This document shows, piece by piece, positions 27,313 to 59,200 of a stretch of 64,000 nucleotides of DNA (positions are counted from its first letter, which is position 1; each line of letters starts with the position of its first letter). The translations under genes were made by a program, and so were the position numbers. The notes beneath the pieces were generated by a model. That model did not search any database, was not told the origin of the DNA, and saw nothing but the letters and a program-made list of their open reading frames with translations. Source of the stretch: an uncultured delta proteobacterium (GTDB lineage: Bacteria; Myxococcota_A; Polyangia; Polyangiales; Polyangiaceae); the NCBI GenBank assembly GCA_963696385.1, contig CAVOKF010000007.1:896001-960000 (forward strand). The letters run 5' to 3'.

Positions 27313-28276
27313 TCACAGCTGGATGTCGCGCCGTGGATCTTCGGCCTGGAACGCCGCGAGACGGTCGACGAGTTCGGCGACTTCGGTACCGCCACCGCTC
27401 GGAATTTGCACGAGGAAGTGGACGTACAGAATCCCCCGCATCCCGACCCTTCCGAGCAACCCCCTTGCCACGGAGGCGAACGACCTGCCCGCTCTGCGCC
27501 CGAGCCGGCACCTTCAACGTTACGGCGCCCTCGACCGTTGGCACGCGCACTTTCGCGCCGTGATAGGCCTCCGCGATCGTAATCGGCAGATCGACATGCA
27601 AGTCGTCGTTGTCGCGCCTGAAATGGGCGTGTGGCGTTACGTGCACGGTCAGCATCAAATCGCCGGGAGGACCGCCACTCGACGAAGGAGCGCCTTGGCC
27701 GGCGATTCGCACTCGGCTCCCGTCGCTCGCGCCGGGCGGAATTCGAACCGTAACCGGGGCGGCACCGTGGCCCTGCGTGTGGAGTTCGAGTGTCGTGCCG
27801 CGCAAGGCCGACGCGAAGTCGATCGTGATCTCGCTCTCGAGGTCATGGCCCTTGGCCGGTCCTCGCGCCTTGCGCGATCGACCCATCCAGTCGCCGAACA
27901 CCTCGCCAAAGCCGCCGGCGCCACCGGCGCCTCCGAAGAGATCTTCGAGGTCTACGGTTCCCCCCGAACCGCCCCGATGCGGCCCCGCGCCGCCACGCGG
28001 CTGACGGGCCGACCAATCGCGATAGGCGCGCACTCGGTCGGGGTCGAAGCCTTCGCGAAGCCCCTCTTCCCCGAACTCGTCGTAGAGCTTGCGCTTCTTC
28101 GGATCGCTCAGCACCTCGTAGGCGTGATTCACGTGTTTGAAACGCGCCTCCGCCTTTGCATTGCCGGGATTCTTGTCCGGATGAAGTTGCCCCGCCAGTT
28201 TGCGGTACGTCTTCTTGATGACGTCCGCTTCCGCGTTCTTCGGCACGCCGAGAACGGCGTAGAGGTCATCGGCCAT
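27313..28276 (-). CDS. DnaJ class B / CbpA-like chaperone; apparent frameshift at ~27430
   Basis: J domain with HPD, G/F-rich region, C-terminal domain; removing one base restores [13 protein letters not shown]...DPRRDIQL* ending at 27313. Confidence 0.88.
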
Positions 28277-28390
28277 CGTCGCTCGCTTGGCGAGGGTAAA
28301 TCGCCCGAGCGCACATCGCAATGCGCTCGCGCCCAACGGGCATGAAAGCCCATCGGCGTCCTTTGGGCCGGAGCGCGGCGGGTCGGCCGC

Positions 28391-29101
28391 TCACCGGACG
28401 GCCAGAATTTCCTCCGCTCGCTCGACCGACAGGTAGAGACCTCGGGCGTAGAGCCGGCGACGATCGTGCGGGCCGATGTCCCCCGGACGTCCTTCCGTCG
28501 CGGCGTGCAGAAGGATCGCTGCGGTGACGCTCACGTTCAAGCTCTCCGCGAAACCACGCATGGGCACGGACACTCGGGCCTGGCAGGCGGCCTCCAGTTC
28601 GGTGCCGATGCCCTCGCGCTCGTTGCCGAGCACGAGCGCCAAGCGCGAATATCGCGCGAGCTGGTGCGGCTCGATCTCGCCGCCCGGATGGGCCGCCACC
28701 AGCGGCATTTCGGCCGCACGGGCCCATGCGATCACGAAGTGCGGCGACCCGTGACAGGTGACATCGACCCACTTGTCCGCGCCGCGTGCGACCGACGAGG
28801 CGACGGCGAACGGTACGCCGGGCCGCTCGACGACGTGAAGCTGCTGGATTCCAAACGCCTCGCACGAGCGGAGCACAGCGGCCCCATTGTGGGGATCGTA
28901 CGGTCGGTCGAACACTACGGCGACGCTTCCGAGCCGACGCGCGATCACGTCCAGAAGCCTCGCCCTGCGCAACTCGGTCACCATCGGCTCGAGGATCCGC
29001 GCGACGCGGTCGGGATCGTGAGCGTCCGCGCGGGCGATCCTCGCGTCGAGCGAATCGCTCGCACGGCAACTCGTCGTGACACCGGAAGTGGTGCGCCGCA
29101 T
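28391..29101 (-). CDS. TrmH/SpoU family RNA methyltransferase
   Basis: DPHNGAAVLRSCEAFG, LVLGNEREG, VPMRGFAESLNVSV. Confidence 0.9.
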   Translation of the reverse strand: MRRTTSGVTTSCRASDSLDARIARADAHDPDRVARILEPMVTELRRARLLDVIARRLGSVAVVFDRPYDPHNGAAVLRSCEAFGIQQLHVVERPGVPFAVASSVARGADKWVDVTCHGSPHFVIAWARAAEMPLVAAHPGGEIEPHQLARYSRLALVLGNEREGIGTELEAACQARVSVPMRGFAESLNVSVTAAILLHAATEGRPGDIGPHDRRRLYARGLYLSVERAEEILAVR

Positions 29102-29177
29102 CGGACCGGTATAAACCCAAGTCATCGCGCGCGCTTCTGCCCGCGTTCCTCCCCGCCCTGCCGCGTCTCACACGGCC

Positions 29178-32100
29178 ATGACGACGACCCACATCCGCTC
29201 TCCCCGCGTGGCATCGACGCCGGCGCGCCGGCGTCGGCCGCCACGCGAGTGGAGCGGGCTTCTGGCTCGGGCGTCGTGCGTGCTGCTCGCGCTCGTCGGC
29301 GTCCTGCCCTTTCTGGCCACCCTCGTCGTACAATCGCCGGGGGCGCGCGGCTGGGCAGCGCGCGAAACAGAGCGCATACTGCGCGAGCGCGGAATCGTCG
29401 CCGAGTATTCGCCTTCGCTTCGAATCTGGCCTCTCGCCGTCGTCCTCAACCGCGTGCGTGTCCATTCGAGCGACGGCGGACCACCGGCCCTCGAGTGCAA
29501 CAGCGTCGTCATTGCTCCCAAGATACTCGCGCTTCTCGGGGGCAAACTCGGCATTGCCGAAATCGACGCGGACGCGCCGCGCATCCGCGCGGTCGTGCGA
29601 AACGGCCGGCTCGCGAACCTGACGCTGCCGGAGACCGGATTCGAACGGCCGGCCGTTCGAGCCGCCCTTCAACATGCTCTCGCTGACCAACGCCTCGATC
29701 GATCTGGATACCGACCGCGTGCAGATCCGTGCCGGCTCGTTCGACCTCGACGTGACGGCCGAACGAGACCGCAGCCGGGGAGCGTCCTTCGAAATCGCAC
29801 TTCGTTCCGCCGAAGCATCGGTGCGCAGCACCCGCTCGAACGCTATAGCGCCCACGTCGGTCGACGAAGACGTGGTCTGTTCCGTGGACGGACGCGTGCG
29901 TATCGAGCCCGATGCGGTTCTCGTGCGCCGACTGAACGCCGTCGCGATCGCCGATCTCGATGCCGCGGAGGGGACCGCGCCGTCGTGTTCGGCGGATGTC
30001 GAGGACAAGCGCCGAGTGGAGGTCTCGCTGGGTCACGTGCACATCCAATGGCCTCAAGGCGGCGGACCTTGGCCTCGGCTCGACGGACACGTTCGCGTCC
30101 GGGCCCCTGTGGCACTCGCCCGTCGGATTGCGCCGCTTCCCGACATCGACGGCTGGGCCGGAATCGACGTGGATCTCCGCTACGCGGAGGACACGATTCT
30201 CCCCGACGCGAGCGGAACGCTCGAAGCACACGATCTGAAGGTCGCTCAATACGCCTTTGCCCAAGAGCTGCGTAGCGATCTGACGATTCGGCGAAACGTC
30301 GTCCAGCTTCCGCGTACGACGCTCCGCGTGGCCCAGGGCACGGTGACGCTTTCGGATACCGTCATCGACCCGCTCTCCCCCGGGGCGAGGCTCGACCGCA
30401 GCCGGTTGGATGTCTCTGGGATCGACTTCACCGCGCTCCTGCGCGCGCTCGGAGTCCACGACCATTCTTGGGTTGGGTGGGACATCCGCGAGATCCACGT
30501 GCCGGTGCTCTCCGGAACGCTTCTTCCTCTACGGATCGATGGCGATCTCACCGCAAAAACGGCTTCATTCGGCGTGTACGACCGGCCGGCGGAGGATCGA
30601 GCGCGTGAGCGGCTCTTCGGATTTTCGCAAGCACAGGTGGCGGCCCATCTCGCGGTGCGCCCGGACGCGATGCGGTTCGTCGACGTGCACGCCGTGCTGC
30701 CGCATTCGCGCATCGACGGGGGGCTGGTCTCGCTCGGCTTCAGCGGCGATTTGATCGTAGACGCCCCGCGGGTCCGAACCGACCTCGACAATCTCTCGCC
30801 TTTGGGCCCGGTGCCGGTGCACGGGACACTGGAAGCGAGCGCGCATGTCGGAGGCACGTTCAAGCGGCCCGAGCCCGAAGGGGACATTACGGCCGCGGTC
30901 GGCCTCGTCATTGCCGACGTGGCATTCGGCGATGTGAGCGCTGGGCGCGTCAAGGTCGATGTCACCGGCCCCCAGATCGCCATCAGCGACATTCGTGCGA
31001 AGCGTCGCGAGAGCGAGTACGACGTCGCTACCGCCCGCATCGGCTTCGGCGGGACGCAGGGATTCGTCGTCGACGCGCAGGGCTCGAGCGAAGCGCTTTC
31101 GCTGCGCGACCTGCTCTCGATGTTCGCGCTCGACGGAGATCCGCGCTTCGACGGACTCGACGCCGCCATGGCCACCCGGGCTGGCGTCCACATCGCCGTC
31201 GGCGGGCCCGAGGACGCGTGCGGAAACGGCTTCATCGTCGTCAACGCGAAAAGCCATCTGAAGGACGTGCAGATCTACGGAGAGCGCTTCGCGCAAGGCG
31301 ACGCAGACGTCGCATTGCAGTGGCACGATCGACAGCGCGGCCTGGCCGGGGCGGACGTCGAGGTGCGATCCTTCGTACTCAACAAGGTGCGGCCTCCGAC
31401 CGGCACGCGATCCGGGACGACCGGAACGGTCCTCGGATCGGCTACGATCCGGCGCGGGGGCGCTTTGGCCGCCAACGTGGTGGTCGAAGGTGTACCGCTC
31501 GGGCGAGTCGATGCGCTCGGACAGGCCGCTCGCCAGGTGGAAGGCAGCGTCTCGGGACTGGCCCAGGTGACGGGCAATCTCGACGATTTTTTGCCCAATC
31601 CGGGCTTTCTCGTTCGCGCCGAGTTGGACGTCTCGGGTACGCGCATTCGTAACGTCGCCGTGGGTGCCTCTCACCTGGACGTCACGATGAGCGATCGAAT
31701 GGCTCGCCCATCGCACAGTTTCGGACGCACCCGGTGCGGAGGGCTCATCGCCGCACCCTTCGACAAGCAAGCCTATCTGGCGGACACGTCTTCGCACGGC
31801 GAATGGACCGTCAACGGAAGTCTGCTGGGCGGCGCCATCGCCTTGCGGGACGTGACGATGACGCGTTCACGATCGCCTCGAATGACGGGCCGCGCTTCGA
31901 TGCGTGGGCTCGACTTGGGCGAGCTCGCCCGCATCGTGTCGACCCAGAACCCCGACGACGCGTCCCCTTCGGTCTCCTCTCCGATCGTCGGGCAGGTGTG
32001 GGGCGAGCTCATCGTCGACGACGGATGGGTCGACGTCCCGTCCAAGTCGCGTGCACGGTTGTTTCTCGGACCGACGGTGGCTTCGCGCGGCGGAGTGAAG

Positions 32101-33675
32101 CTGACACTCAGGCCGCCGTCCGACCCACTCGTGCTCGCGGACGACGCGTTGACGATGCCGCCGCTTGAAGTGACCCTCGACACGCCCGACGGATTCCGCG
32201 GTGGATTCGAGCTGACGGGCGGGGCGACGCGACTGACGAGCGATCCCGTTCTGTCGGTGGACGCACGACTGGAGCCGCTCGACCTTGCGATTCTGGGTCG
32301 GCTCCTGCCCAGACTGGAGCGTATCAACGGGCACGTGGACGGCCGCGTTCACCTCTCGGGTACCGTAAAGTCGCCCGAGATCGCCGGCGAGCTTCACGCG
32401 ATCGGCGACGACATCGAGGTGCGGGGATTCCCGAGTCCCTTCACCGACGTCCAGGTCGACATCCAGGCCACGGCTCGCCAGATTTCGGCCTCCGGCACCG
32501 CCCGAGTCGCCGGCGGAACCATCGCACTGCACGGGGCCGTTCCCGTCCGGGGCTTTGAGATTGGCTCGCTCGAATCGCGCGTCGCCGTGCGCGGAGTGCG
32601 CTTGGCGCCGGCCGACGGCGTCTCGGCGAGCGCCGACGCGGACCTGCACATCTCCTACAATCCCAGAGCCCAGGGCGGCCAGACGGCCGCATTGCCTCAC
32701 ATCGCCGGCGACGTGACCTTCGGCGCGGTGAGCTACACGAGACCCATCACGTTCAACCTGGATCTGGCGTCGGCCCGGGCCAAGCGAACGGTCGTCGACG
32801 CGTACGACCCGACGCTCGATTTCGTCGTCTTCGACGTGCAAATGGCGTCCAAGGCTCCGATCGTCATCAAGAACAATCTGATCGAAGTTCAGCTCGGCAT
32901 CGACTCGGGGGGGCTCGAGGTGACCGGTACCAACCAGCGGCTCGGACTGCGGGGTGCCCTACGAGCGCTTCCCGGCGGACGCTTCCACTTTCAAGGAAAC
33001 GACTTCGAAGTCCAACAGGGGCTGATTCGTTTCGACGACCCGACCCGGATCGACCCGAACGTGGACATCACCGCGGTGACGGACTACCGCCGATACACGG
33101 ACACGAGCGCGGGCACGGCGGCCGGCGCGGGAACCGGCGGTGGCCCGGCGGCGGCATCGGCGAACTCGACCCAGGGGGGATCTCTCTGGCGCATCACGAT
33201 GCACGCGTACGGCGACGCCGACAACGTGCGCATCGAGTTGACGAGCGAGCCTGCGCTGGCCCAGGACGACATCGTTCTGCTGCTCGCGGTGGGCATGACC
33301 CGGGCCGAGCTCGACCAGCTCCAAGCGAGCGGCATCGAGGGCGTGGCGCTGGGCGTCATCGGCACGGCGACGGGCGCCGACAGCGTGGTCAAACAGGCCA
33401 TCCCAATCATCGACGATTTCCGTTTTGGAAGCGCCTATTCCACGGTGACGGGAAAAACCGAGCCCCAGCTCACCGTCGGCAAGCGCCTCACGAACGAGCT
33501 TCGCGCGAGCGTGCAAGCCGCGCTGAGCGACGATAGCGAGCTGCGGGCCAACATCGAGTGGCGTCTGAACAACCGCTTGAGTTTGCAGGGCTCGTACGAC
33601 AACATCAACGACATCTCATCGTCGGCCCTCGGCAACCTCGGCGTGGATCTTCGCTGGAGACTCAATTTCGAGTAG
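29178..33675 (+). CDS. tamB: TamB/AsmA-like translocation and assembly module protein (~1498 aa after repair); apparent frameshift at ~29640
   Basis: N-terminal anchor in ORF 29178 joins the 1333-aa ORF 29674-33675 after one-base removal; C-terminal DUF490-like region ending GVDLRWRLNFE. Confidence 0.82.
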
Positions 33676-33684
33676 CCGGACCGG

Positions 33685-37137: not shown

Positions 37138-37168
37138 AGGCTCTTTCGGCATGCGGTCGGCGTCGACG

Positions 37169-39417: not shown

Positions 39418-39481
39418 GAGTACGGGCAGCTACCACGAAAGCGTCCGTTTCGATAGCAGCCGGGCTACCGTAGCCGAGGTC

Positions 39482-40777
39482 ATGAGCGGTTCGGGCATTT
39501 CGACGACCCCTCGCTCGGCGTCCGATCGCCTCTGGCACCTGGTCATCTGGGGAGCGACGGGATTCACGGGCCGTCTCGCCGCCGAGGCCATGGCGCGCCG
39601 CTACGGCGGCAATCCGGCCGTTCGCTGGGCGATCGCGGGTCGCGATCGGAGCAAGCTCGAAAAGGTGCGCGACGAGCTTGGACGGGTCGCCGAGCGTGCG
39701 CGCGACGTGCCTATCGTGATCGCCGACAGCCGAGACCGAGCGTCGCTCGACGCCCTCGCCCGCGACACGCGCGTCGTCGCGAGCGCCGTGGGTCCATTCG
39801 CCGTTTATGGGGCCGATCTGGTCGGCGCGTGCGTGGCGGCGGCGACCGACTACTGCGACATCACGGGCGAGACGCCATTCGTTCGCGAGATGATCGACCG
39901 ATACCACGCCCGAGCCCGCGCCACCGGTGCACGAATCGTTCACTGTTGCGGATACGACGCAGTCCCGTCGGATCTCGGAACGTTGATGATCCAGACGCAC
40001 ATGCGCAAAACGCACGCCACGCACTGCCGGGTCGTGAAGTACTTCGCCTGCGAAACCCGGGGCGGCGTCAGCGGGGGGACGATCGCGAGCGTGATCGCAC
40101 TGTCGGAAGCTGCGTCGGCCGATCCTCGGGTAAGGCGCCTTTTGCGCGACCCCTATTCGCTCGACCCCGAGCACACCGGCGTGGGACCGGACGGACCGGA
40201 TCCGACCGGCGTTCGTTGGGACGACGACGTCGGAGGTTGGACCGCACCGTTCGCGATGGCCTCGGTCAACACCCGCGTCGTGCGCCGCACGAACGCGCTG
40301 CTCGGCTACGCGTACGGTCACGACTTCCGTTACAGCGAGATGACGAGCCTGGGGCCGGGCGCGGGCGGATGGTTGGCCGCAGTCGCCGTATCGGCGGCCA
40401 CGGCAGGCCTTGGCGCGACCATGCGCTTTCCGGCCGTCGCTCGCGCGGCGGCGCGCGCGCTCTTGCCGGCGCCCGGGCAAGGGCCGTCGAGACGCACACG
40501 CGAAGCCGGGCGATTCACGTCGCGCCTCGTCGGTCTCGCCAGCGCGGACCGCGCCGATCCAGCCAAGGTGTTCGCCGTCGTGCGCGGAGTGAGCGATCCG
40601 GGTTATGGCGAGACGGCCAAGATGCTGGTGGAGTCCGCCGTGTGTCTCGCGATGGACCGTGAGGCGATTGCGCACGAGGGCGGGGTGCTGACACCGGCCG
40701 CCTGCATGGGGTTGCGCCTGGTCGAGCGGCTGCGCGACGCCGGGATGACATTCGAGACGTCGACGACGCCGGTCTGA
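39482..40777 (+). CDS. Saccharopine dehydrogenase-like NAD(P)-binding oxidoreductase
   Basis: WGATGFTG, AIAGRDRSKL, YCDITGE, CGYDAVPSDLG, SGGT, DPGYGETAKML, GGVLTPA. Confidence 0.88.
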   Translation: MSGSGISTTPRSASDRLWHLVIWGATGFTGRLAAEAMARRYGGNPAVRWAIAGRDRSKLEKVRDELGRVAERARDVPIVIADSRDRASLDALARDTRVVASAVGPFAVYGADLVGACVAAATDYCDITGETPFVREMIDRYHARARATGARIVHCCGYDAVPSDLGTLMIQTHMRKTHATHCRVVKYFACETRGGVSGGTIASVIALSEAASADPRVRRLLRDPYSLDPEHTGVGPDGPDPTGVRWDDDVGGWTAPFAMASVNTRVVRRTNALLGYAYGHDFRYSEMTSLGPGAGGWLAAVAVSAATAGLGATMRFPAVARAAARALLPAPGQGPSRRTREAGRFTSRLVGLASADRADPAKVFAVVRGVSDPGYGETAKMLVESAVCLAMDREAIAHEGGVLTPAACMGLRLVERLRDAGMTFETSTTPV

Positions 40778-40794
40778 TCGCGCGGCCATTTACC

Positions 40795-42555: not shown

Positions 42556-42594
42556 GAGAGACCCGGCAACCAGCGCAAGTGGGAACGGACTCCA

Positions 42595-43005
42595 ATGTCG
42601 GGCAATACGTCAGAACGCGGCTCGGAACTCGACTCCAAGGCCCGACTTCTCATCGTCGACGACGACGCCGCAATCGGGCGCGCCATCTCGCGCATTGTCC
42701 GAGCGCGGCACGACGTCGTCGTGCTCACGAGCGGTCGCGAGGCGATCGAACGCATCGCGGCGGGTGAGCGCTACGATGCGATTCTCTGCGACTTGATGAT
42801 GCCCGACGTGACCGGCATGGATGTCTACGAGCGGATTTCGGCCATCGACCCACCGAGCGCGCGCCGCATGATTTTTCTGAGTGGCGGAGCGTTCACCCGT
42901 CGCGCCGAGGAGTTCTTTCTTCGGATCGACAATCAGCGTGTGGACAAGCCATTCGATCGCGCGACTCTCCTCGCGGCGCTTGCCGCGGTGCTAGAAGGGA
43001 GCTGA
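42595..43005 (+). CDS. Single-domain response regulator
   Basis: LIVDDD, ILCDLMMPD, FLSGG, KPF. Confidence 0.9.
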   Translation: MSGNTSERGSELDSKARLLIVDDDAAIGRAISRIVRARHDVVVLTSGREAIERIAAGERYDAILCDLMMPDVTGMDVYERISAIDPPSARRMIFLSGGAFTRRAEEFFLRIDNQRVDKPFDRATLLAALAAVLEGS

Positions 43006-43009
43006 TGCC

Positions 43010-43360
43010 ATGAATGCGACCCCGTTCTTCGTCGCGGCGCTCGCAACCCTGTCGATCTCTTGCAATGCCGAACGCAAAGGCGAGTGCGATCAACTTCTGT
43101 CGGCCCTGAAGCCTCTCGAGCACGAACCGGGCGAGGACGGCGTCGAGGGGGCCCGGCGCGCGATCGAAGCGATCCGATTTCAGGACGAACCGCTGCGCGA
43201 ATACGCATCGAGCGCGAAGTCGACGCTCACCGTTCTCGCCGAGACGCTGCGTACTCAGGCCGGCGATTCTGCGCCCGACGGAACCGACGACGTGGTCAAA
43301 GAAAAGCGCAAGGAAGCGCGAGGCGAAGTAAGAGAAGTGATCCGGTACTGCACGCCGTAA
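43010..43360 (+). CDS. Small helical lipoprotein
   Basis: Lipobox LSISC; starts 4 bp after the response regulator. Confidence 0.65.
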   Translation: MNATPFFVAALATLSISCNAERKGECDQLLSALKPLEHEPGEDGVEGARRAIEAIRFQDEPLREYASSAKSTLTVLAETLRTQAGDSAPDGTDDVVKEKRKEARGEVREVIRYCTP

Positions 43361-43593
43361 AAAGTCGCCTGCAGTCCGCCCTCGGCTGCGGTCATCGGGA
43401 AGCCGCGTCGGTGGGGGGTGTGCTTGGCGGGCGTGTCGTTGTCTCACCCTTTTCGGGGAAGAGCGGTCGCAGCGACCCGATGCATCGTCTTGCGCCGTGC
43501 GGACGGCGAAAAGAAAACGCCGGGGGGCCGGCGCGAGCGCCGCCACGGCGCGCGCCCTCGGTTTGCGGCCGGCGCGTGATATAGCGTCCGCCC

Positions 43594-45120: not shown

Positions 45121-45154
45121 CGCGCGCTACTGAAAAGGGCTCGAACCGTCCCCA

Positions 45155-47095
45155 ATGCGTAGCCGAGCCCGAGCCACCCTCCCGCGCGCGGCGCTACGAC
45201 GGCTGCTGGCTCTGCGGCATCTTTTCGGTGCGGCGCGGGCGCCGATCGAATTTCAGATCCTCGGACGAGTCCTGCTGCAGGCCGCCCTGGTCGGCGCCGC
45301 GGCCGGCCTCTTGGGATCGCTGTTCTTTGCCGGCGTCGAGGCCTTCCAGCGTTTGGTTCTCGAGTCGTGGGTCGGCTATGCGCCGCTTCGCGCCGGTGGC
45401 GAGACGATTCTCGGAGAACTCCGGCAGCAAACGCCCTTTCGTCCCTGGCTACTGCTCGTGGTGCCCGCCGCAGGCGCCTTGCTCGGCGGGGCCATTTCCA
45501 CGTGGCTCGCTCCCGAGACGCGCGGAGGAGGCAGCGACGCCATCATCGAAGCATTCCATCAACGGCGGGGCATCGTTCGCAAACGGGTGGCTTTCGTCAA
45601 AGCCGTCGTGTCCATCCTGACGCTCGGCTCGGGCGGCTCCGGCGGTCGCGAGGGGCCCACGATGCAAATGGGCGGCGCGATCGGTTCGCTGGTCGGCCAA
45701 CTGCTGCACGCCACGGATCGCGAACGGCGCATCTTGTTGGTCGCCGGTACCGCGGCCGGAATGGCGGCTGTTTTCCGGACGCCGCTCGGCGCGGCCCTGC
45801 TCGCCGTCGAAGTCTTGCATCGCGACGACTTCGAGGCGGACGCGCTCGTTCCGAGCGTCCTGGCGAGCGTGGTGGCCTATTCCGTGTTCATCGCGTTCTT
45901 CGGCGAACAGACCCTGTTCGCTCACGCCCCGAGCTACCCCTTCGTCCCGGCTCACCTTCCGCTGTACGCCCTGCTCGCCGTGCTGGTGTCTGTCGTGGCC
46001 AGCACGTTCTTGTCGACTTTGCGTTGGGTCCAGACCGTGACTCGGAATCTGCCGGCTCCGGAATGGTCGAAGGCCGGATTGGGCGGCCTTGCCCTCGGAG
46101 TCTTCGCGACTCCGATCATCGTCTTGATCGGACCGCAAATCGGTCAGCCGGGGCAAGGGCTCGGCATTCTCGGCGGCGGCTACGGGGCGGCTCAGCTCGC
46201 GATCACCGGAGCCGATTGGTTTCCGCTCGGCTGGAAGGGCGTTCAGCTGCTCGTGCTGCTCGGCACCGTCAAGATGATAGCGACGTGCCTGACGGTCGGC
46301 AGCGGAGGTAGCGCTGGAGATTTTGGGCCGTCGCTCGTCATCGGAGGAATCTTCGGGGGCGCTTTCGGCCGTGCCGCCCAGACCCTTCTGCACGATCCGC
46401 GCATCCAGCCGGGAGCGTTTGCGCTCGTCGGAATGGGGGTGTTCTACGGCGGGCTGGCACACGTGCCGATCGCATCGCTCGTCATGACGTGCGAGCTCAC
46501 GGGCAGCTACGATCTACTCGTGCCGCTGATGTTCGCCGAAGGGATTGCGTTCGTGGCCCTACGACACCGTAGCCTGTACCACGCTCAAGTGGCGACCAAG
46601 CGGGACTCTCCCGCACACCGCGATGATCTCATCTTCGACGTGCTGACGGGGATGCGAGTCGCTGACGTCGTCGTGCGCGACCGCCCGTATTCGACCTTCA
46701 CCACGAGGACGCCGGCCGGTGAGGTGACGCAGAAGGCGGCTGCAGCCACGTGGCAGGATGTCTTCCCGGTCCTCGACGATCACGGCAAACTCGTGGGCCT
46801 CGTCCTGAGCGACGTGCTTCGCATGATCGCCGCGAATCCAGATATCGGCGACTTCGCGATTGCCCATGATCTCATGGTCCCCCCCGTCAGCGTGAACGAG
46901 ACCGACGATCTGCAGCGGGCGCTCGAAGCCATCCTGGAGCATGGTCTGCGCGAGATCGTCGTCGTGGGGCAAGGCGGACGGATTGTGGGCTTCCTCGACG
47001 AGGCAGAAATTACACGAGTGTACCACCGTGCGACCAACCGTCGCGAGACGTCTCGCCCGGATGACCCCCCGGATGACCCGGTGGCTCGAGCGTAG
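45155..47095 (+). CDS. ClC chloride channel/transporter with CBS domains
   Basis: GSGGREGPT, FRTPLGAAL, GGSAGDFGPS, ELTGSY, C-terminal CBS pair. Confidence 0.92.
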   Translation: MRSRARATLPRAALRRLLALRHLFGAARAPIEFQILGRVLLQAALVGAAAGLLGSLFFAGVEAFQRLVLESWVGYAPLRAGGETILGELRQQTPFRPWLLLVVPAAGALLGGAISTWLAPETRGGGSDAIIEAFHQRRGIVRKRVAFVKAVVSILTLGSGGSGGREGPTMQMGGAIGSLVGQLLHATDRERRILLVAGTAAGMAAVFRTPLGAALLAVEVLHRDDFEADALVPSVLASVVAYSVFIAFFGEQTLFAHAPSYPFVPAHLPLYALLAVLVSVVASTFLSTLRWVQTVTRNLPAPEWSKAGLGGLALGVFATPIIVLIGPQIGQPGQGLGILGGGYGAAQLAITGADWFPLGWKGVQLLVLLGTVKMIATCLTVGSGGSAGDFGPSLVIGGIFGGAFGRAAQTLLHDPRIQPGAFALVGMGVFYGGLAHVPIASLVMTCELTGSYDLLVPLMFAEGIAFVALRHRSLYHAQVATKRDSPAHRDDLIFDVLTGMRVADVVVRDRPYSTFTTRTPAGEVTQKAAAATWQDVFPVLDDHGKLVGLVLSDVLRMIAANPDIGDFAIAHDLMVPPVSVNETDDLQRALEAILEHGLREIVVVGQGGRIVGFLDEAEITRVYHRATNRRETSRPDDPPDDPVARA

Positions 47096-47126
47096 ACGGT
47101 CGCCCGAGCGGGGCAGGCCAGCCATG

Positions 47127-47170
47127 TCGCGTGTGGGCTGCGTGTGGGTCGCCTGTGGCTCGCGTGTGGC
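47127..47170. promoter_or_regulatory. Four phased 11-bp direct repeats (consensus tcgcgtgtggs) upstream of the giant TPR gene
   Basis: tcgcgtgtggg ctgcgtgtggg tcgcctgtggc tcgcgtgtggc, followed by TTGACG at 47174. Confidence 0.5.
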
Positions 47171-47297
47171 GCGTTGACGCACACGGCGAGGACCGATCGC
47201 GACGATAGCCATTCTTTTTCTCATTGGCGTTGCTTCCGAGTTACTCTTGTCGTGCCGGGCGGACGTGAGCTTCTTCGCCGTGGCAGCGAGAGCCACA

Positions 47298-50200
47298 ATG
47301 CAACAGCAACCGCCTCGGCAACGCGCAGTTGCCGCTCCGCAGCCGTCAGGTTCGTCGCCCGAGGCGAGGGCGGTCCATGAAGAGCGGCTGCTCGAGACGA
47401 TGCTGACGTCCTTGGTCCGAGGCGTCTTGCCCGCCGACGCGTGGGAGAAGGTCCATGCGTCGGCGCGCGACGAAGGACGAACGAGCGAGTTGGCGTTCGC
47501 GTTCGAGACGGTTGCCCAGGGCAAACGATTGAAAGCGGCTCCTCCTGCGTTCGGGGCCGAGTTTCTGTTCCAGACGGGTCGCTTCATCGCGGACGTGATC
47601 GGCGACGAAGCGAAAGCCGTGACGTACTTCGAGCGCGCCTTGGCGCTGTTTCCAGGCCACACGTCTGCGTTTGCACGAGCGGACGAGCTGCTGCGTCGTT
47701 CGCATCAGCTTCTGAGACTCGCGGAGCTTCATGCGAGCTCCGCTCAGCATCGGCCACGGTTCGAACAGCCCGCATTGCTGCGGCGTGCGACCGAACTGCT
47801 TCAAGAGGCGGGCGGCGCCGAGGAACGCCTCGTCGAATGGCTGCAACAGATCCTCCGGCTCGAGCCGGGCAACGAATATGCCCGCGCGGCGCTCGACCCC
47901 ATTCTTCTCAAGGCCAACCGGTTCCGCGACGTCGTCCGGATGAACGAGCAGGCGCTCGCATCGGAGCCGCCTCCGGACGCCGAAACGAAGCGTGCGCTGC
48001 TCGATCGCGTGCTCGAGCTGTACGCCGACAGGCTTCAGGAGCCCGAACGCGCACTGCCTCACGTCGAGCAATTGCTCGGCCTGGAGCCGAGTCACGACGG
48101 CGCGCGCCGCGTCGCGCACAAGCTCGTTCGAATCAAGGGGCTCGCGGGGCGCGCGGCCTCCGCCCTCGCTGGCGCGTACGAAGCGCTCGGCTCTCACCAG
48201 GAGGCCGCTCACTTCTTGTCGCTCGAACTCGAAAGCACGCGGGGACCCAAGCGGGCGCCTTTGCTCGACCGTCTCGGGCGCCTGAAACAGCGGATGGGAG
48301 ATCTCGCCGGAGCGTTCGAGGCTTTCGATCAAGCCCTTGCGATCGACCCCGTAGACGACGTGGCCGCCCGTTACGTCGCGCTGGCGCTCGAGCTGGGACG
48401 CCACGGCGACGCCGCGAAGACGCTCGGTCGGGTACTCGCCAGCGTCAAGGACCCGGTTTCCCGATCGAGGACAAGCGCGCTACTCGGCGAGGTCTTGCTG
48501 CGTGCTGGCGACGTGAAGCGGGCGACGCCCATGCTGGAAGGTGTGCTGGCGGCGTCGGACGCACCCGCGGACGCAGTCCTCGCGGCTGCGTATCTCTTGC
48601 ACGAAGTGCTCGACAACGGCCAGGACGCGCGCCGGCTCTGCGACGTGCTGGAAAGAATCGCAACCACGGAGCTCGATGCCGAACGACGCCGATCCGCCAA
48701 TGTGCGCATTTCGGAGTTGGCCGCGGAGCTATCGGACTTGCCGCGCGCCATTCGCGCGTACGAGCGACTCTTGGATACGAGTAGCCGGGCGGTTGCGCTG
48801 GAGGCGCTCGAACCTCTCTACGAGGCGACGGGCGATCCCCTGAAGCGCGCGCGCCTCCTCGAGGAGCGCGCGAAGGATGCCCCCGACGTGCAGGCACGAC
48901 GCGATCTCATGAAGGCCGCGGAGATTCGGGTCAAGGACGCCAGCGACCCGGCTGCGGGGACCGCGACCTGCGAGACCATCATCGCTCGATTCGGCGCCGA
49001 ACGAGACGTCCTGGCGTTGCTCGTTCCGTTGCTCGAGGCGCAACGCCTCTGGGGCGATCTCGCGAACGCGCTGGCCGGCCAGGTGTCTCTGGAGGACGGA
49101 CCGGTGCGCGCGCAGCTGCTCGCACGGCTGGGGGCTATCAAGCTGCAACGCTTGCACGACGTCCCGGGCGCGATCGGCGCGTTCGAGGCGGCACTCAGCT
49201 TCGATGCGCATGAGAGAACCGCGCGAATGACGCTCGAGAAGCTGGCGGCGTCGGGCAATCATCGGATCGACGCAGCGCGGGTGCTCGAACCGCTGTATCG
49301 CATCGAGGGCGCGCGGGGCCCGCTGCTCAGGACACTCGACTTGCGCGGCTCGCTCGCGCCTCGCGTCGATGACCGTCTCGGTGCGCTGCGGGAAGCGGCC
49401 GACCTGGCCGGGGGGGCCGGGTCCGCGGACGCGCTTCAAGCCGTCGACTTCGTCGCTCGTGGCCTCGCTCTGGCGGTGTCCCACGATCGTCCCGTCGGCG
49501 AGTGGCTCAAGCGGCTCGAACAGGTCACCGACCCACGAACCGACGCGACGCGACGCGCGGCGATTCTTGCTGGCGCGATCGGCGACCGGCCCGTCGACAA
49601 CGCCGAGATGAGCGTGCTCGCCAAGACGGCCGCCGAATCGCTCGACGCGAGCGGGGACGTTCCCTCGGCGATCGCGCTTCTTCGCCGAGCGCTCGCGTTT
49701 GAGCCACATTCCAACGAGCTTCTGGTTCGAATCGACGAGCTCTTGCGCGAGCAAGGCAGCGCGGGCGAGCGCATCGCGCTCTACCGAGCCACGCTCGAGC
49801 GTGCCAGCGGACCACGACGCCGCGACCTGTTGCACCGCATCGGGGGCATCCAGCGACACGACCTCGCCGACGTCGACGGCGCTGTCGCGACGTACCGGAC
49901 CGCGCTCGACGAGGACGCCGGTGACATCGATGCCCAGGTGGCCTTGGAGGAACTTTACTCGGGCGCCGGACGCTGGACGGACCTGTGCGAGTTGCTCGAG
50001 TGGCGTCTTCCGCAAACGAAAGGAGACGTCTCGCGCGGGTTGCACTCGAGACTCGCTCGGCTTTCCGCCGAGCACGGCGACCCCGAACGGGCGCGGATGC
50101 ACTGCATGCGCCTCCTCGACGACCCGGATCTGACCGGCGAGCATCTCGACTCCGTGCAGTGGGCGGCCGATCGGCTCGACGCGCCGGACATCTCGCGATC

Positions 50201-53200
50201 GCTGCTCCGGCGACGCGCCGAAGCGGCCGGCGACCCCCACGATGCCGTGATCTGGCTGGAGCGTCTCGGAGAGCTCGAGGTCGACAGCCGCGCGGACCCG
50301 CAGGCGGGCGCGGCCGCCTGGAAGCGAGCCGCCCAGATCGCCGAATCGAACGGCGACGACGACAAGGCGCTGACGCTGTTCGCGCGCACCCGCAAAGTGG
50401 CACCCGACGACGGCGAAGTGATCGCTCGTCTTGCGGCGCTTTGCGAGCGAGGCGGACACTGGGGACAACTGCCGCCGTTGTACATGGCGCTCGGCCATCA
50501 CTGCGCGGACGATGCCGAGCGCGTCGAGCTTTCGCTGCGAACGGCGAAGCTGCTCGCCGATCGGCTGGGGGACGTCGGTACCGCGGCGCGGCACGCGGGG
50601 CGAGCGTTCGAACTGGCTCCTACCCGTTCGGACGTACTCGGTGCGTTCGAGTCGCTCAGCTTCGCGGCCGGCGCACTGGACACTTTCGAACGCGCGGTCG
50701 ACGAGGCGTTGGCTCGTTCGGAGGACGAGATCCCCAAGGACGTCCGGGCACGTTTGACCCTTGCGCGCGCACGGGTGCACGCGAGCGATCCGGCGCGCGC
50801 CGACCTGGCTGCAGAGGTCTACCGCGACTTGCTGCAGGACGATTCACTTTCGGCCGAATCCCGCGCGGACGCGGTATCGGCCTTCGAGGCGCTCGTCACG
50901 GCGGACGAGAATTCTCCCGCTCGGCGCGCCGATCACGAATGGCTCCTCGAGTGGCGGGCCAGCCGGGCGCCCGAACACGATCGGGCCGCACGCATGCTCG
51001 ACTGGGCGAGCGCGGTCGAGACGAAGTTCGCCGACCCCGCGCGGGCGTTGGCTCTGCACAAGCGCCTCTTGGCAATTGACCCGGAGTCGGACGAGGCGCT
51101 CTCGGCGATCGCGCGGCTGGGACTCGCGACGGGCGCCACGGATCTTGCGCTATCGGCGATGCGCACGCGTCGCGATCGATCCGAAGGGCCGCAACGATTC
51201 GTCATCGAGCGCGAGATCGCGCACGTGCTGTTCTCGCGAACGACCCGGTGGGAAGAGGCTCTCGAGTCGCTCGCAGCCGTGCTGACGGAAGCGCCGGGCG
51301 ACCCCGATGCGCTCGCGCTGGCGACCCAGGCCCTGGCCGATTCGTCTGCGCGTGCGGGTGCCTTGGGCTTGTTGGAGCGCGCAGCCGAGGCCACCGACGA
51401 TTCGGCCGTCCGGCAACAGATTCTGGCGAGCTTGCTCGAAATACCGGCCGGCGCGGCGGACGACGTGCGTCGAACCGGATGGTTCGAGCGGCTCTGCGAC
51501 TTGCAGTTCGATGCGGGCCTGTCGACCGACGCGCGGGTCACCGCGATGAGAGCGGTGCGGGAGATCCCGCACGTGTCCCGGCTCTGGGACCGCGCCGAGC
51601 AGCTCGCGCGTGACGTGCCCGGCGCAGACAAGGACGTCGCGGCCGTCTATGAGGAAGTGCTCAATCGGCCCATTTCACCCGCTCTTGCGGTCGCCATCGG
51701 GGAGCGCGCCGTCCACTTTTACGAGGAATGGTTCGAGGATTCGGCACCCGTAGCGCGTGTCTTGGAGCGCGTCCTGAAGCTCGACCCGGGAGCGAACTGG
51801 GCATTCGACCGCTTGAAGCTCCTGCTCGACGCGGCCGAGCGCTGGGACGATCTCTTTACGCTCTACGACCAGGCCCTGCTGTCAGCGACCGGCAAGAGGC
51901 GAGCGGCTATCCTCGAAGATGCCGCGCAGACGGCCAAGGACTTCGCGGACCGTCCCGATCGCGCGACCGACTACCTCGAACAATTGCGCGAGCTTCGGCC
52001 ACACGATGCACGATTGTCCGGCGCGTTGGAGCGCCTCTATGAGCGTCAAGGCAAGCATCGCGAGCTCGTGACCCTTCTGTCGGCGCAGCTGCCGTCGCTC
52101 GACGGCGACGCGGCGCTGCGTTCCAGGGCGCGCGTCGCCACCCTCTGGCTCGAGGAGCTCGGCGACCCCGAAGAGGCCTTGAATTTCTTGGAGCCCTTGC
52201 TCGACAAAAGCGGCGCGACTTTCCCCCGGGCCGCGGCGTCGGCCTCGTGGAGGCTTCTCGAGCGAATCCTCGAGGCCGCTTCCCTCTCCCCGGATTCGGA
52301 GTCGATTTCGACGACTTCGCGGCGCGGGGCCGGTGCCACGGCACTGCGCACCGTTCGTCAACGTGCGGCCGCGTGGCTGGAGGATCACTACACGGCTGTG
52401 GGCAACGACGCGGAGCTCGCTCGTGTGCTTCTGGTCCGTCTCGAAGCCGTTCAGGAGCCGGGCGAGCGAGCGCTCTACCACGTTCGTATCGCCGATCTGT
52501 TCAAGAACGTGGGCGACGTCTCGAGCGCGCTCGACCAGACGGGCCGCGCCGTCGTGCTCGCACCGGGCGACGAAGCCCTGCGGGCCAAGATGACCGAACT
52601 TGCCGAGCGAACGGGCAAGCTCGAGCAACTGGCGACCGTGCTCGCCGCTGCCGCCGATGCCGCTGGCTACGGTCGCTTGCGCGTGGAGCTCGCACTTCGA
52701 GCGGCGAGTGTGCGCGCCGATCGCCTGGGAGACACGGCGGGCGCCATTTCCCTTCTCTCGTCGATCTTGGCCGAGCCCGGCGCGCGCGAGCCAGACGTGA
52801 TGGAGGCCGCTCGAAGGCTCGAGCCCCTTCTCGAGACCGCCGGGCGCCTCGGTGAGCAGCTCGATCTGCTGGAACGGATCGTCGCGATCGAGCCCGATCC
52901 GATCGTGCGACAGGAAGCGCTCGGACGCGCGGCCCGGCTGGCCGTTCATCTCGGACACGCGACGCGAGCGGTGGCCCTCTGGGAGACTCGCCTGGCTGCC
53001 GACGAGCGTGACCGCGAAGCCCTCGACGGACTGGTCGATCTGCTCGAGCTCGACGGTCACGGCGACCGACTCGCTAGGGTGCTCGAGTTGCGAGCCGCGT
53101 GCATGACGGACGCCTTGCTCCGCCGCAACGATCTTGCGCGCGCCGCCATGCTCTACGGCGACGTGCTCGATCGACCCAACCGAGGCATCGAGATCTGGCG

Positions 53201-56200
53201 CGCGGTCGAGGCCGAATTCGGAGAGGCGCAAGACGCGAGAGAGGCTCTTTCGACGCTGCTGCGCGCAACGGCACGCTGGCAAGAGCTGGCCGACCACCTC
53301 GAGCGGAACGCCCTTCGAGCGATGGAGCCCAGACAGAAGGCGGATCACTGGAGCCAGCTGGGCGAGGTCCTCCGAGAGCAGCTCGGGGCGCGGTCGAAGG
53401 CGGTGAGCGCCTACGCCTCCGCGCTGACGTCGGAAGTGACCAACGCGCGGGCGCTCGGCGGACTCTTGGCGTTGACCGAAGATCCGGACCAGGGCGCGGG
53501 CGCGATCGGGGTTCTGCTCGAGGCCCTGCGACGATCCGACGACTGGCGTGAGATCCTTGCGCTCACCGACAAGCGAGTCGCCATGGCCGCGTCGCCTGGC
53601 GACAAGGTGATCGTGCTCTTGGAAGCCGCCGGGATCGCGGAGCATCGCGAGCACAGCGCCGACCGTGCGTTCGAAGCGATGCGAGAAGCCTTCTCGATCG
53701 CCCCGAAGGACCGGCAAGTTCAAGAGGAGGTTGCGCGACTCGCCGAGGCGGCGGGGGCCTGGCCCGCGCTCGTCCAGGCCTACCGAACGGCCATCGCGCG
53801 GACGCGCGACGACCAATCCTTCGAGGCGGAGTTTTGGACGAAGATTCGGCGTCACTCTCGAGGTTCGCTTGGGCGACCTCGAGGGGGCGCTCGACGCCTA
53901 CCGGCGGGTGGTGTCCCTCTCGAAGGATGGACCCTCGGCCTGCGCCGCCGTCCGCGCGGCAGGTGCCCTGGGCCGGTGGGAGACGGCCGCAAGCGTCGTC
54001 GTGGAGTTGGCGCCCTCGTCGAGTCAGGGCGCGGTCGACGCGATCGAGGCGCTCGAGCGCGCCGCGGCCGACGCACACGCTTGGGACGCGGCCGCGTTCG
54101 CCCTTGCCGATGTCGCGACCACGGCCAATTTGACTGGCGCAGCGGCACGCGACGTCCATGCACGAATCGCCGCATGGCACCGCGATCGACGCCATGACCC
54201 TGCGTCGGCCGAGGCCTCATTGCGAAGGGCTCTCGGGCCAGATCCGGAGAACACCGCGCTTCTCGACGCGCTGGCGCATCTGCAGCGCCATCACCCGGAT
54301 GAGCGATTGGTGGACACGCTCGTTTCGCTCTCGCGCGCCGAAGGCGGCAGCTTGCCGCTGTTGCGCGAAGCAACGGAGATCGCGCGCGACGTGCTCGACG
54401 ACGGCGCGATGGCCCTTCGGTTGGCAAACGATGTCCTCGATCTTTCGAGACAACGCTGGGGCGATGCGGGCCCGGCGTCGGTGGAACACGCGGTGTTCGC
54501 AGAGTGGGCGCTCGACGCCATCGCCGGGCTGTATGACGACGCCGGAGACGCCAAAGCGATGGTCGACGTGCTCGCCCTGGGCGACACGATGCCCTTCGAG
54601 CCCGACGTGCGCCGGAGCATGCGACAGCGTGCGGCGCGGTTGGCCCTGGACCGGCTCGGCGACCACGAGCGAGCGATTTCTCTCTACCTCTCGGTCCTCG
54701 AGGAGTCTCCACGAGACGCCGAAGCCATCGATCGGCTCGCGGCCATCTACCGCGCGCACGATCGGGGACACGACCTGCTCCGCCTTCGCGAGCGGCAAAT
54801 CGAGACGTCACCCGACGCGAGCGAGCGCATCGCACTCCGTCTGGAGACAGCCTCGCTTCTGGGCGAGCTCGGAGAGCCCGACCGCGCCATCGACGCGTTG
54901 CGGGACAACCTCCGCGAAAACCCCGTGGAGGAGAGAACGGTCGAAATGCTCGCCGCCGCTCTCGAAGGATGCGGGAGGTTTGCGGACCTTCGCGACTTGC
55001 TGATCGCACAAGCGGGCGGGGACCGACGCTCCGCGGACTTCTGGTACCGCGCGGCCCTCGTTGCCGCCGAGCGGCTGAACGACAGCGCCTCGGCGGAGAC
55101 CTATCACCAGAACGTCGTCGCGTTGGAGCCGAGAGCCGAGTCCTTCGATGCTCTAGCCGATCTGGCCGATCGTCGCGGTGACCGAGCGGCCGCTGCAGCG
55201 TGGCTCGAAAAGTGGACGACGGTGGTGCGACCCGAACAGCGAGCCGGGGCCACGCTTCGGCTGGCCGACGCCCTCGTCCGGGCAGGCGATGTCGATCGTG
55301 CGACGGAACGCCTCGATCGGGCGATCGCGGAGACGCCGAGCGAAGAGGCCCTACGGGCGCGGCTCGCAAGCATCTACCGGGAGCACGAGCAGTGGTCGAA
55401 GCTTGCTCGCGTGATTGCAGAGGGGGCCGTGTACGCTCCCGACAAACCGGCGCGACTGGAACGCCTGCTCGAAGCGGCCAAGCTGTTCGCGGAGCGATGC
55501 GCCGAGCCCGATCGCGCCGTCTCACTGCTCGACGAGGCCACCTATCTCGCGCCCGAGGATCACGGGATGAAGCTGAAGCTCGCCGACGCTCTCGCGCGGG
55601 CCGGGCGGCGCGACGAAGCGCGGGCCATACTGCAGTCCCGAATCGATGCCTTCGGCGGGCGGCGGCCGAAAGAGCGTGCAGGCGTGCACCATCAGCTGGC
55701 GCAGCTCGAGCTCGCAGCCGGCAATCGCGCGCGAGCTCTCGTCGAATTGGATGCCGCAGCCCGGGTGGACCCCCAAAATCCAGAGGTCCTCTTGAGGCTT
55801 GCCCGCCTCGCGCGGGACGACGGTCAGCTCGAACGCGCAGAGAAGAGTTATCGGGCGCTTCTGGTCGTTTTGCGGATGCCCGCGGAAGCGTCCGAGGTCA
55901 CGATCGCGCGCAGTGAGGTTCTGTTCGAGCTGAGCACGATTGCCTCCCGGCGAGGAGAGGGCGGCCGGGCCAACGAAATTCTGGAGAGCGCGCTCGAGGC
56001 TGCGGCCCAGAGTGACTTCGAGCAGGCCCGACTCGAAAGCGCACTTCGCGCATCCGGGGACGACGAGACGCTCGTGCGCGTGCTCGAAGCGAGACTCGCC
56101 CGCCTAGGGGGCTCACCTGAATCACGTGAATGGTCGATCGAGCTCGCCGGTGTCCTCTCCGGCCGACTCGGCCGCGCGGAAGAAGGCCTGAGCATGTGGA

Positions 56201-59200
56201 TGCGGGCGATTGCCATCGACCCGCTGTCGGCAGCCGAGCACGATGCGGCCTTGGCGCTCGCCCGATCGACGGGCCAAGTCCAACGCTACGTGGAAGGGGT
56301 GTCGCTTCTCGTCGATCGCGCCGCGACCACGGACGTGGCCGCTCAGCTCCTCAGGCGCCTCGGGGCCGTGGTGGAGTCGGACTCGAGGGAGGACGTCCGG
56401 GCGGCAGCGCTGTACGAAAGGGCTCTGGCGCTCGACCCGTCGTCGAAGCCACTCTTGCAAACGCTGGAGCGCGTGTACGACCGCATCGGCGACGTAGAGA
56501 AAGCCGCGGGGGCGCTCTCTTCGCTCATCGCGATCGAAACGCTCGAAGGAGGATCTCGAGTCAAAAGCAGCGCGATCTATCGCCTGGCGACGCTGCGCTT
56601 GTCGTTTTTGCACACGCTCGAAGAGGGAGCCGCGCTGCTTTCGACGGCGCTCGAAGGCGATCCCCAGTTCGATGTGGCCGAGCGGGCGCTGCGTGCCGCT
56701 GTGGCCCTCGACCCCACGTGCTTGCCGGTCCTCGAGCTGTACGAGCGCGTGGGACGCGAGCCGGGGTACGAGCGCACGCTGGCCGACGCGCTCCGGCTTC
56801 GCGCTCAACTACCGGGAGCTTCCGGGGACACGTTGCGCGAGGCGGTCGAGGCGGCTGTGCGGGTCGGCGACTCCACCTCGGCGGAAGCGCTCTTGGGGCG
56901 GTTCGTGGAGTCCGAGGCCCTCGCGGAGGCGGACCCCATCCACGCGTCGTGGGCGCTCGCCGCGCTTGCCGATTACCGGCAGCGAGCGGGCGATCTGCGC
57001 ACTGCACTCACCCTGAAATCCCGGGCCGCAGACGCGGCCGATCCGGATACCGCCCGACGGATTCGCTTCGAGATTGCGCGCATCGCGGCCGACGGGCTCG
57101 GTGACCTGCAGCTCGCCTCCGACACCTACTTGGCGCTGCATCGGGCCGACCCAGCCGATCGACAAGCCTGGGAGGCGCTCGCCGACACGTACAGGGGCCT
57201 GAACGAGACGCGCAAGCTCGTGGACCTGTTGGCCTCGATCACGGAGTTCGTCGATGACGTCAGCGAACGGGCCCAGCTTCGGTTCGAGCGGGTTCGTCTG
57301 ACTCGACAGCTCGGCCTCGACGAAGTCGATGCTGCGACGGCGTTGCGCGAGATCCTCGACGAAGATCCCAATCAACGGGACGCGGCACTCATGCTCGCCG
57401 AGATCTTCGAGCGCGCGGGGTCGCACGACGAACTGGCCGCCCTGCTCGCGCACCAGATCGAGGCGGCCAAAGATCGCGCCGACGCTGCGTCGATCGCCTC
57501 GCTTTCGTTGCGTCTGGGAGCGTTGCGCGAACCCGTGGATCGGTTGGAGGCGCGTAACATCTATTACACGGCGCTCGATTGGGAGCCCCAAGATCGCGCT
57601 CTGCTCGATTCGCTTTTGCGACTGCTCGGAGCGGCCGACAGCGCAGGAGAGCGGGCGGACATTCTGGAGCGCCGACTCAGCCTCGAGCAGGGACCCGGAG
57701 CCGAGTCGATGGCGATCGAGCTTTCGACCGCGCGCCTCGAAGCGGGAGACGAATCCGCCGCCGAGCGCGCGTTGGTTATCGGGTTTCGCGCGTTTCCTCG
57801 GAGTGTTCTGCTTCGCGAGCGACTCGAGAACCTCTACCGGCAACGCCGCGACCTCCGGCGCCTGGCGGAGCTGCTCGTGGCCGACGGGACCGCTCGCGAA
57901 GCGGCGAGCGAAAGGGTGTCGAGATTGCGCGAGGCCGCGGCGATCTGGTGGACGGAGCTGCGAGAGCCTCTCAGAGCCGCCGATGCCCTCGGACTCGCGC
58001 GTGAAGCGGCGCCGGACGATCTGACTCTGCTGCTCGATCAGGTCGACTTGCTCCTCTCCGGCGAGGACCGCGACAGAGCTTTGTCCGCGCTCGATCGCGC
58101 GATCGAGTCGATCCCGGCCGACCACCGCGGCCGTGCATCGGTCTTCGCAGCCCGCGCCGCGGTGCGTGCCGCCCGCGGCGACGAGCGCGGCGCGCTGGAC
58201 GATTTCGAGGTCGCGTTCTCGATGGATCGAGAGACCTACGCGGCGGCGTTCGCAGCCCAGCTCGATCGGGCACGCGCGACCGCGGACAGACAACGGGACC
58301 ATGAGGCGATCCGCGCGATCCAGCTACGGCGGGCCCAGGTGCTCCCGTTTGCCGGCGACATCGAAGGTTCTCGCGCCATCCTTTCGGCTTTGCTGGGAGT
58401 GGATGCGGCGGACCGCGACGTACTTCGGACCGCGGCCGCGCTCGAATCGGCGCTCGAGCAATGGGAGGCGGCAATCATCGCCTGGAGGCGTCTCGTCGAC
58501 ATCGAGGAAGGCGATCGGGCGATCGATGCGACACTGGCTCTGGCCGAGGCATGCGAGCGAGCCGGCCGAGCGGGGGATGCCCGCGAAGCGCTCGAGCGCG
58601 CCTTGCTCGGGGCGCGGGGGCACCAAGGCGTGCGCGCACGCCTCGAGCGAATTTACGAAGGTGCCGGCGCCTGGCACGAACTGGCGCGCCTCGCCGTCGA
58701 AGACGCAGCCGCGACGGGCGCCGTAGCCGACCGCGTGGCTCACCTCTTGCGCGCCGGATGGTTGCTTCTGACGCGGGCTGGAGACCCGGTGGGTGCCATT
58801 GTGCCACTCGAGGAGGCTCTCGAATTGCAGCCGGACGATCTCGATGGCGTGGCGATCCTCGCCGACGCGTACACCGCCTCGGGCCGGGCGCGCGAGGCTG
58901 TGGCGCGGCTCGAGCGAGCCATTCTGCCCTATCGGGGGCGCCGCACACGCGAACTGGCGGCGCTGCACCTGCGGCTCGCGCGCGCGGCACACGAGTACGG
59001 CGACGGATTCCGCCGAAGCCCTCTCGCTCACGCACGCTCTGGAGTGCGACTCGCAGAGCGGCGACATTTGCTCGGAGGTGGCGATTCAGGCGATCGAAAT
59101 CGGGCAGCTCGACATCGCCACCCGCGCCCTGCGCGCGGTGACGCTGCTCAAGGGCACCGCACCCATCAGCCGGGCGCTCGCGTATCAATACCTCGGCGAG

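Follow-up and report, generated by a model that had tools for sequence, protein, structure and literature searches.

Errors in nanopore consensus sequences gather at methylated motifs, GATC included, and affect only some occurrences of a motif, as described in the accessible parts of four reports (PMC6591954, Wick et al. 2019; PMC11610603, 2024; PMC12710330, 2025; PMC12392509, 2025). Here we analyse a stretch of 64,000 nucleotides (G000:C7:896001-960000; hereafter the window) from the genome of an uncultured delta proteobacterium, in which a cbpA-like DnaJ-family gene, tamB and a giant TPR-repeat gene are interrupted by four frameshifts, each at a GATTC pentamer. At each of the four breaks the assembly consensus has almost certainly put a spurious extra T (A when read from the opposite strand) into GATC. 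A first-pass annotation, made from the window's letters alone, had taken the genes to be intact and the extra T to be an artefact. That part of its interpretation holds: contigs from public sequencing runs lack the base at the two sites compared, the genes are unbroken in a relative of the same genus, and the motif is enriched among the insertions of the genome.

The genome (G000) comprises 6.94 Mb in 8 contigs, has a G+C content of 65-66% and is 96.4% complete. Its small number of contigs and the presence of homopolymer deletions hint at a long-read origin. A search of 30 relatives provided a genome of the same genus with 92% DNA identity (G003; 330 contigs), of which contig C2 (138,938 bases) is colinear with G000:C7:879299-1016416. 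All four GATTC pentamers reported by the first-pass annotation are found in the window at the positions that it gave (Table 1). At each of them the frame changes by +1, meaning one base too many, and G003 has exactly one base less at every site. Stop codons alone leave feasible break windows about 550 to 650 bases wide per site, so homology was needed to place the sites. For three of the four, placement had been a best guess inside a short window; the G003 alignment now supports all four, each of which appears as a clean single-base insertion in the window with 17 to 20 identical positions in the 20-column flanks. Within the window, these are the only coding frameshifts to emerge from the comparison with G003. 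A search of positions 40000-59900 for repeats found none, and the breaks display neither the repeat tract nor the long homopolymer of a phase-variable slippage gene: each site is one GATC tetramer, and the flanks differ from site to site.

Table 1. Coordinates of the sites and genes discussed. Positions without a contig prefix are those of the window; the extra T at the GATTC sites is almost certainly spurious.
Feature	Position	Strand	Remarks
Fifth extra-T site	2043..2047	+	GATTC right behind the TGA stop (2042-2044) of ORF 11..2044; non-coding
cbpA-like DnaJ-family gene	27313..28336	-	J domain and DnaJ_C
Extra-T site in cbpA-like gene	27429..27433	-	GATTC on minus strand (GAATC on + strand); break within the Asp codon of ...G-D-LYV
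tamB (split between two frames)	29178..33675	+	PF04357 TamB, 7.9e-43
Extra-T site in tamB	29638..29642	+	GATTC; single break, frame 0 to 1
Giant TPR-repeat gene	47247..59320	+	Pieces of 2,198, 1,721 and 103 aa; start codon provisional
First extra-T site in TPR gene	53843..53847	+	GATTC; first break, frame 0 to 1
Second extra-T site in TPR gene	59006..59010	+	GATTC; second break, frame 1 to 2
Dam-family gene L019	G000:C6:7211-7927		Dam-family profile match
Dam-family gene L018	G000:C4:304573-305292		Dam-family profile match
ATTTC insertion examples	C7:865442, C7:988481, C7:1062086, C5:1371975, C4:391136, C7:867178, C4:696738		Outside the window

The cbpA-like gene, identified by its matches to PF00226 (J domain; 1.5e-26) and PF01556 (DnaJ_C; 2e-38), encodes 301 aa up to the break and then 38 aa in the +1 frame, ending at a stop codon at 27315-27313. 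Its counterpart in G003 is a single unbroken open reading frame (ORF) of 380 aa. When aligned to this protein, the first piece spans residues 39-341 and the second 343-380, and the break thus falls within a single Asp codon before LYVHF. At this site (27431) the window reads cAGAATCc and G003 reads cAGG-TCc, which on the gene strand of G003 is GGGGACCTG.

In tamB, coding switches from an ORF in frame 0 (29178..30275) to one in frame 1 (29674..33675). The six-frame coding profile follows the same course, its signal moving from +0 to +1 near 29640, and tamB continues without further frameshift. A single tamB ORF in G003 passes through the site corresponding to 29641, where GGATTCG in the window stands against GGAT-CG in the relative. 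The frame 2 ORF 28466..29686 was considered as the tamB coding frame and rejected, the coding signal ending near 29100. A separate gene upstream of tamB on the minus strand (28391..29125) fits the coding profile better.

The giant gene is broken twice. TPR families of Pfam match all three of its pieces, including the 103-aa tail in frame 2, and its true end is the stop codon at 59318-59320. The counterpart in G003 is one open frame of 4,049 codons. At site 53843 the window has GAAGATTCGG and G003 has GAA-AATCGG, and at site 59008 the sequences are GGATTCC and GGA-TCC, respectively.

Positions 50000-59900 of the window are contained in 20 public runs from 14 studies. We compared the contigs of four of these runs, from four studies and four years (X1, X4, X9 and X10), with the window over positions 40000-59900 (19.9 kb). 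Only three indels are listed in this interval, at 53845, 59008 and 43375. The base at 53845 is absent in all four runs (depth 11/11 in X1, 3.1/3.1 in X4, 2.7/2.7 in X9 and 3.9/3.9 in X10), and that at 59008 is absent in the three runs that cover the site (12.9/12.9 in X1, 5.7/5.7 in X4 and 3.9/3.9 in X10; X9 gives no cover). Accurate reads had been named by the first-pass annotation as the means of checking the extra T, and at these two sites no covering run contig contains it. X1 may be the source sample of the assembly, with X4, X9 and X10 belonging to other studies. The X1 contigs and the window differ at 12 listed substitution sites in the 19.9 kb, so X1 need not be the identical clone. 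Three of these 12 substitutions lie within 5 bases of a GATC, and they have no clear tie to that motif.

The pattern extends well beyond the window. For the comparison across the genome, we aligned a 1.337-Mb sample of G003 (all of contig C2, plus the leading 60 kb of each of 20 more contigs) to G000 and retained high-scoring segment pairs of at least 86% identity and at least 1,500 columns. There were 104 of these, covering 1,155,203 bases of G000 on six contigs. One-base indels were kept if the nearest other gap was more than 45 columns away and if 15 or more of the 20 flanking columns matched on each side. By this isolation filter 225 of 1,050 were retained and 825 were removed, the latter mostly from divergent, gap-rich stretches of the alignment. 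The isolated indels consist of 132 insertions in G000 and 93 deletions. Exact duplications of the W (A or T) in GATC, written here as GA[W]TC, account for 19 of the 132 insertions (expected 0.19% per base; binomial p 7e-30), and two more are near-exact, the alignment having set the gap one or two bases away (21 in total). Removal of the inserted base creates GATC at 23 of the 132 insertions; at 1.6 million random positions the figure is 1.3%. Among the insertions in which a single base has become two, 19 of 52 lie in GATC, and no other NATC context is prominent. In the reverse control, in which the extra base is in G003, GAWTC accounts for 1 of 93 cases, and that site is no GATC in G000.

GAWTC is the context of 14 of the 29 insertions that switch the frame of a coding sequence, and all 38 coding frameshifts divide into 14 at GAWTC, 9 homopolymer changes (7 deletions and 2 insertions) and 15 others. 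The affected share of the GATC sites in the sample is about 0.25%, roughly 1 in 400. Enrichment of GAWTC among frameshift contexts across the genome was what the first-pass annotation had made its reading depend on, and the tabulation finds it. A change-point scan of codon statistics over the whole genome, which needs no relative, points the same way: its 5,509 candidates are mostly true gene junctions, and at +1 frame switches no 5-mers are more enriched than GAATC (158 occurrences) and GATTC (152), where 93.5 of each would be expected. A per-position version of the codon-statistics scan was set aside as noisy; it flagged 1% of positions, with GAATC at a z of 3.9 and GATTC outside the top 14. 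The GATC tetramer itself is not avoided in G000, with 50,067 occurrences against about 22,000 expected from base composition, a roughly 2.3-fold over-representation.

A fifth site of the same kind is present in the window at 2045, where the assembly reads TGATTCCAG and G003 reads TGA-TGGAG. The isolation filter excluded it from the genome-wide counts. It breaks no gene, showing that the error does not depend on coding sequence. Another such site lies outside the window at C7:887549.

With 21 sites in hand, the sequence around the motif could be tabulated. The first-pass annotation had noticed a purine before each of its four motifs; over the 21 sites the base 5' of GATTC is C in 11, G in 5, A in 4 and T in 1, and the regularity disappears. 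The base that follows GATTC is T in 12, G in 7, C in 2 and A in none. Genome-wide, the 3' flanks of GATC are 15% T and 49.5% G, so that T is in excess at the affected sites (p 1e-5). The affected subset thus seems to be set largely by the flank, with GATCT written as GATTCT. Read on the + strand, 12 sites are GAATC and 9 are GATTC. The idea that the coding strand always carries GATTC also fails, since among 14 coding sites the coding strand has GATTC at 10 and GAATC at 4, clear cases of the latter being C7:887549 and C5:1394540. The coding-strand regularity in the window is a small-sample effect.

A second insertion context came to light in the same comparison. This is an extra C after ATTT ([C/G]ATTT[C][C/G]), found in G000 where G003 has ATTT, and it is non-palindromic. 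ATTTC is the context of 9 of the 111 insertions that are not at GAWTC (0.92 expected) and of 7 of the 13 other coding insertions (examples in Table 1). A similar junction, GTTTC|G, was seen in another assembly of the genus, G007.

The error was then sought in three other assemblies of the genus by comparing the ORFs of 400 kb each of G006, G007 and G008 with the ORF proteins of G000 and recording adjacent frame switches, a comparison that is blind to sequencing platform. In G007 (C9:700001-1100000), which has one Dam-family gene, GAWTC is found at 5 of 11 +1 junctions (0.22 expected). In G006 (C15:420001-820000) it is found at 2 of 4 (0.37 expected), one of which is pinned to a 19-base window. 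The GAWTC frameshifts of both assemblies fall in unrelated, non-homologous genes. G008 (C3:2300001-2700000), which has two Dam-family genes, yielded no +1 junction in its 400 kb under the same platform-blind comparison.

Methyltransferases of the Dam family act on GATC. Two intact Dam-family genes are present in G000 (Table 1), scoring 275.2 and 276.8 bits against TIGR00571 (cut-off 114.85). Both fall under the cut-off of the E. coli Dam equivalog NF008152 (178.8 and 174.6 against 441 bits). One of them adjoins a gene for a Shedu-type (SduA_C) nuclease, and the other has SNF2 helicase and PolB-like exonuclease genes as neighbours. Searches of G000 for MutH and for a DpnII-type nuclease were negative, and the two genes therefore look like orphan or defence-island methylases. 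The first-pass annotation had proposed a search for genes of GATC modification, with cytosine methylation and phosphorothioation among the candidates; the search turned up the Dam-family genes, while neither the C5-methylase family PF00145 nor DndC (TIGR03183) has a match in this 96.4% complete genome. N6-methyladenine is therefore the sole candidate with a gene behind it. G000 also contains 8 PF01555 genes of unassigned specificity, which leave N4-cytosine methylation possible. Of 31 genomes searched, drawn from 13 genera of the order, 29 have a TIGR00571 match; G000 itself and the unpublished G010 are part of this count. The two genomes with no match are G006 and G017; in G006 (91% complete) PF02086 reaches 17.5 bits, below its cut-off.

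We propose the following account. The DNA of the organism almost certainly reads GATC at the four sites, and all three genes are intact. A systematic error duplicates the central A or T of GATC, with a preference for GATC followed by T, and the same class of error recurs at unrelated sites in two further few-contig assemblies of the genus. The assembly is in few contigs and presumably built from long reads; the platform would be nanopore or similar. What triggers the error may be the altered signal of N6-methyladenine at GATC, deposited by one of the two predicted Dam-family methyltransferases.

That the extra bases are real, having arisen by recent motif-directed insertion at GATC that turned the genes into true pseudogenes in the assembled strain, is very improbable. 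The substitutions that separate X1 from the window allow that the run may hold another clone; every covering run, however, from four studies and four years, is without the base. Real insertions would also mean that about 37% (14 of 38) of the coding frameshifts in the sample go back to the same rare mutational event, with tamB among the conserved genes hit, and that the same motif breaks non-homologous genes in G007 and G006, while the many-contig relative G003 gives 1 of 93 in the reverse direction. Programmed recoding, in which a +1 ribosomal frameshift or transcriptional slippage at GATTC would restore the proteins, is scarcely credible. All that speaks for it is that the breaks share one pentamer. 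The flanks vary, with no common slippery run or stimulatory element, and affected sites also occur outside genes (7 of the 19 exact GA[W]TC sites are not coding frameshifts, and site 2045 lies behind a stop). A shifted frame conserved in relatives, as recoding would require, is not seen in G003 or in the run contigs; the shift is missing from the DNA of near-identical strains and of G003, and hence there is nothing conserved to recode.

The artefact itself is thus much firmer than its cause. As to the trigger, we lean slightly towards N6-methyladenine at GATC, given that the duplication is confined to the GATC palindrome and that two Dam-family genes are present. The same artefact could also be unrelated to any modification, the basecaller or polisher simply miscalling certain k-mers (GATCT as GATTCT, and ATTT[G/C] as ATTTC[G/C]); we regard this as a substantial possibility that stops somewhat short of being probable. 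In its favour are the T that follows the motif at 12 of 21 sites against 15% in the genome (p 1e-5) and the small share of GATC sites affected; the flank dependence is also compatible with an error triggered by methylation. The restriction of the duplication to the full GATC palindrome (19 of the 52 two-base duplications) is awkward for a plain miscall, as is the presence in G000 of two genes from the family whose target is GATC. Several observations weigh against the account proposed above, very few of which touch the artefact. For sites 27431 and 29641 the evidence is the G003 alignment, the run comparison having spanned positions 40000-59900, and X1 is not an independent witness because it is possibly the source sample. 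The remaining points concern the modification step. G006 has the error, yet no Dam-family gene was found in it, although at 91% completeness it could methylate GATC by another class of enzyme; G008 has two Dam-family genes and zero +1 junctions in 400 kb. The second, non-palindromic motif ATTTC suggests plain context-dependent miscalls. The accessible parts of the four reports describe mainly substitutions at methylated motifs (PMC6591954, PMC11610603, PMC12710330, PMC12392509).

Thus, of the interpretation given by the first-pass annotation, the artefact and the intact genes stand, and the link to modification is plausible only. Its explanation of why most GATC sites are read normally, partial modification, fares less well: the affected subset is better explained by the flank, together with chance in the consensus. 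It is possible, and we put it forward tentatively, that N6-adenine methylation of the Dam type leaves one-base duplication in GATC, mostly GATCT to GATTCT, as a specific footprint in consensus sequences built from long reads.

For the window, the practical result is that annotation should treat all three affected genes, the cbpA-like one, tamB and the giant TPR gene, as unbroken, and the breaks have no biological import. The 14 GAWTC errors among the 38 coding frameshifts come from a sampled sixth of the genome and extrapolate to about 80 falsely broken genes genome-wide. Annotators could flag or repair any frame break that is mended by deleting one W from GAWTC. If the link to Dam methylation is true, the contexts of these errors would carry information on methylation motifs. 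The motifs of uncultured bacteria might then be deduced, with no need of raw signal, from the sequence around frameshifts in deposited long-read genomes, and between a third and a half of the apparent pseudogenes in these genomes would belong to a correctable class of error.

The third indel of the run comparison, at 43375, was considered as an additional frameshift and rejected, since it is intergenic, 15 bases past the stop codon of a small ORF (43010..43360). Here the assembly lacks a G (CTGCAGT-CCGCC) that is present in X1, X10 and G003; X4 matches the assembly. The position is directly beside a CTGCAG palindrome, and CTGCAG is listed among error-linked motifs in the accessible part of one report (PMC12710330). 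The small ORF (43010-43360, + strand) encodes 116 aa with a signal-peptide-like start and a Cys (…LSISC…), suggestive of a putative lipoprotein.

Among the described systems that come closest, the Dam orphan adenine methyltransferases (TIGR00571 / PF02086) are represented by the two G000 genes, which lie far above the family cut-offs, have no MutH or DpnII-type nuclease found in the genome to accompany them, and are predicted to recognize GATC. The frameshifts resemble the homopolymer-length errors of long-read assemblies in being single-base indels that give apparent frameshifts, and errors of that type also occur in G000, where 7 of 9 coding deletions are in runs of 3 or more. Unlike them, however, the GATTC errors take a run from one base to two and depend on the whole GATC tetramer, not on run length. 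Their nearest counterparts are the Oxford Nanopore consensus errors at Dcm CCWGG and Dam GATC. Going by the accessible parts of the reports cited above, those errors likewise occur at one short motif that is the target of a methyltransferase, persist in the consensus, affect some occurrences of the motif only and are gone with accurate reads. We found no description of a T duplication in GATC in these parts of the literature, and the supplements (for example Table S5 of PMC12710330) may contain one. The described errors are mainly C to T and G to A substitutions, whereas here the A or T of GATC is duplicated and the reading frame is broken. The GATTC breaks are not a real feature of the organism, and the class of error to which they belong lies within the known motif-linked errors of long-read consensus sequences.

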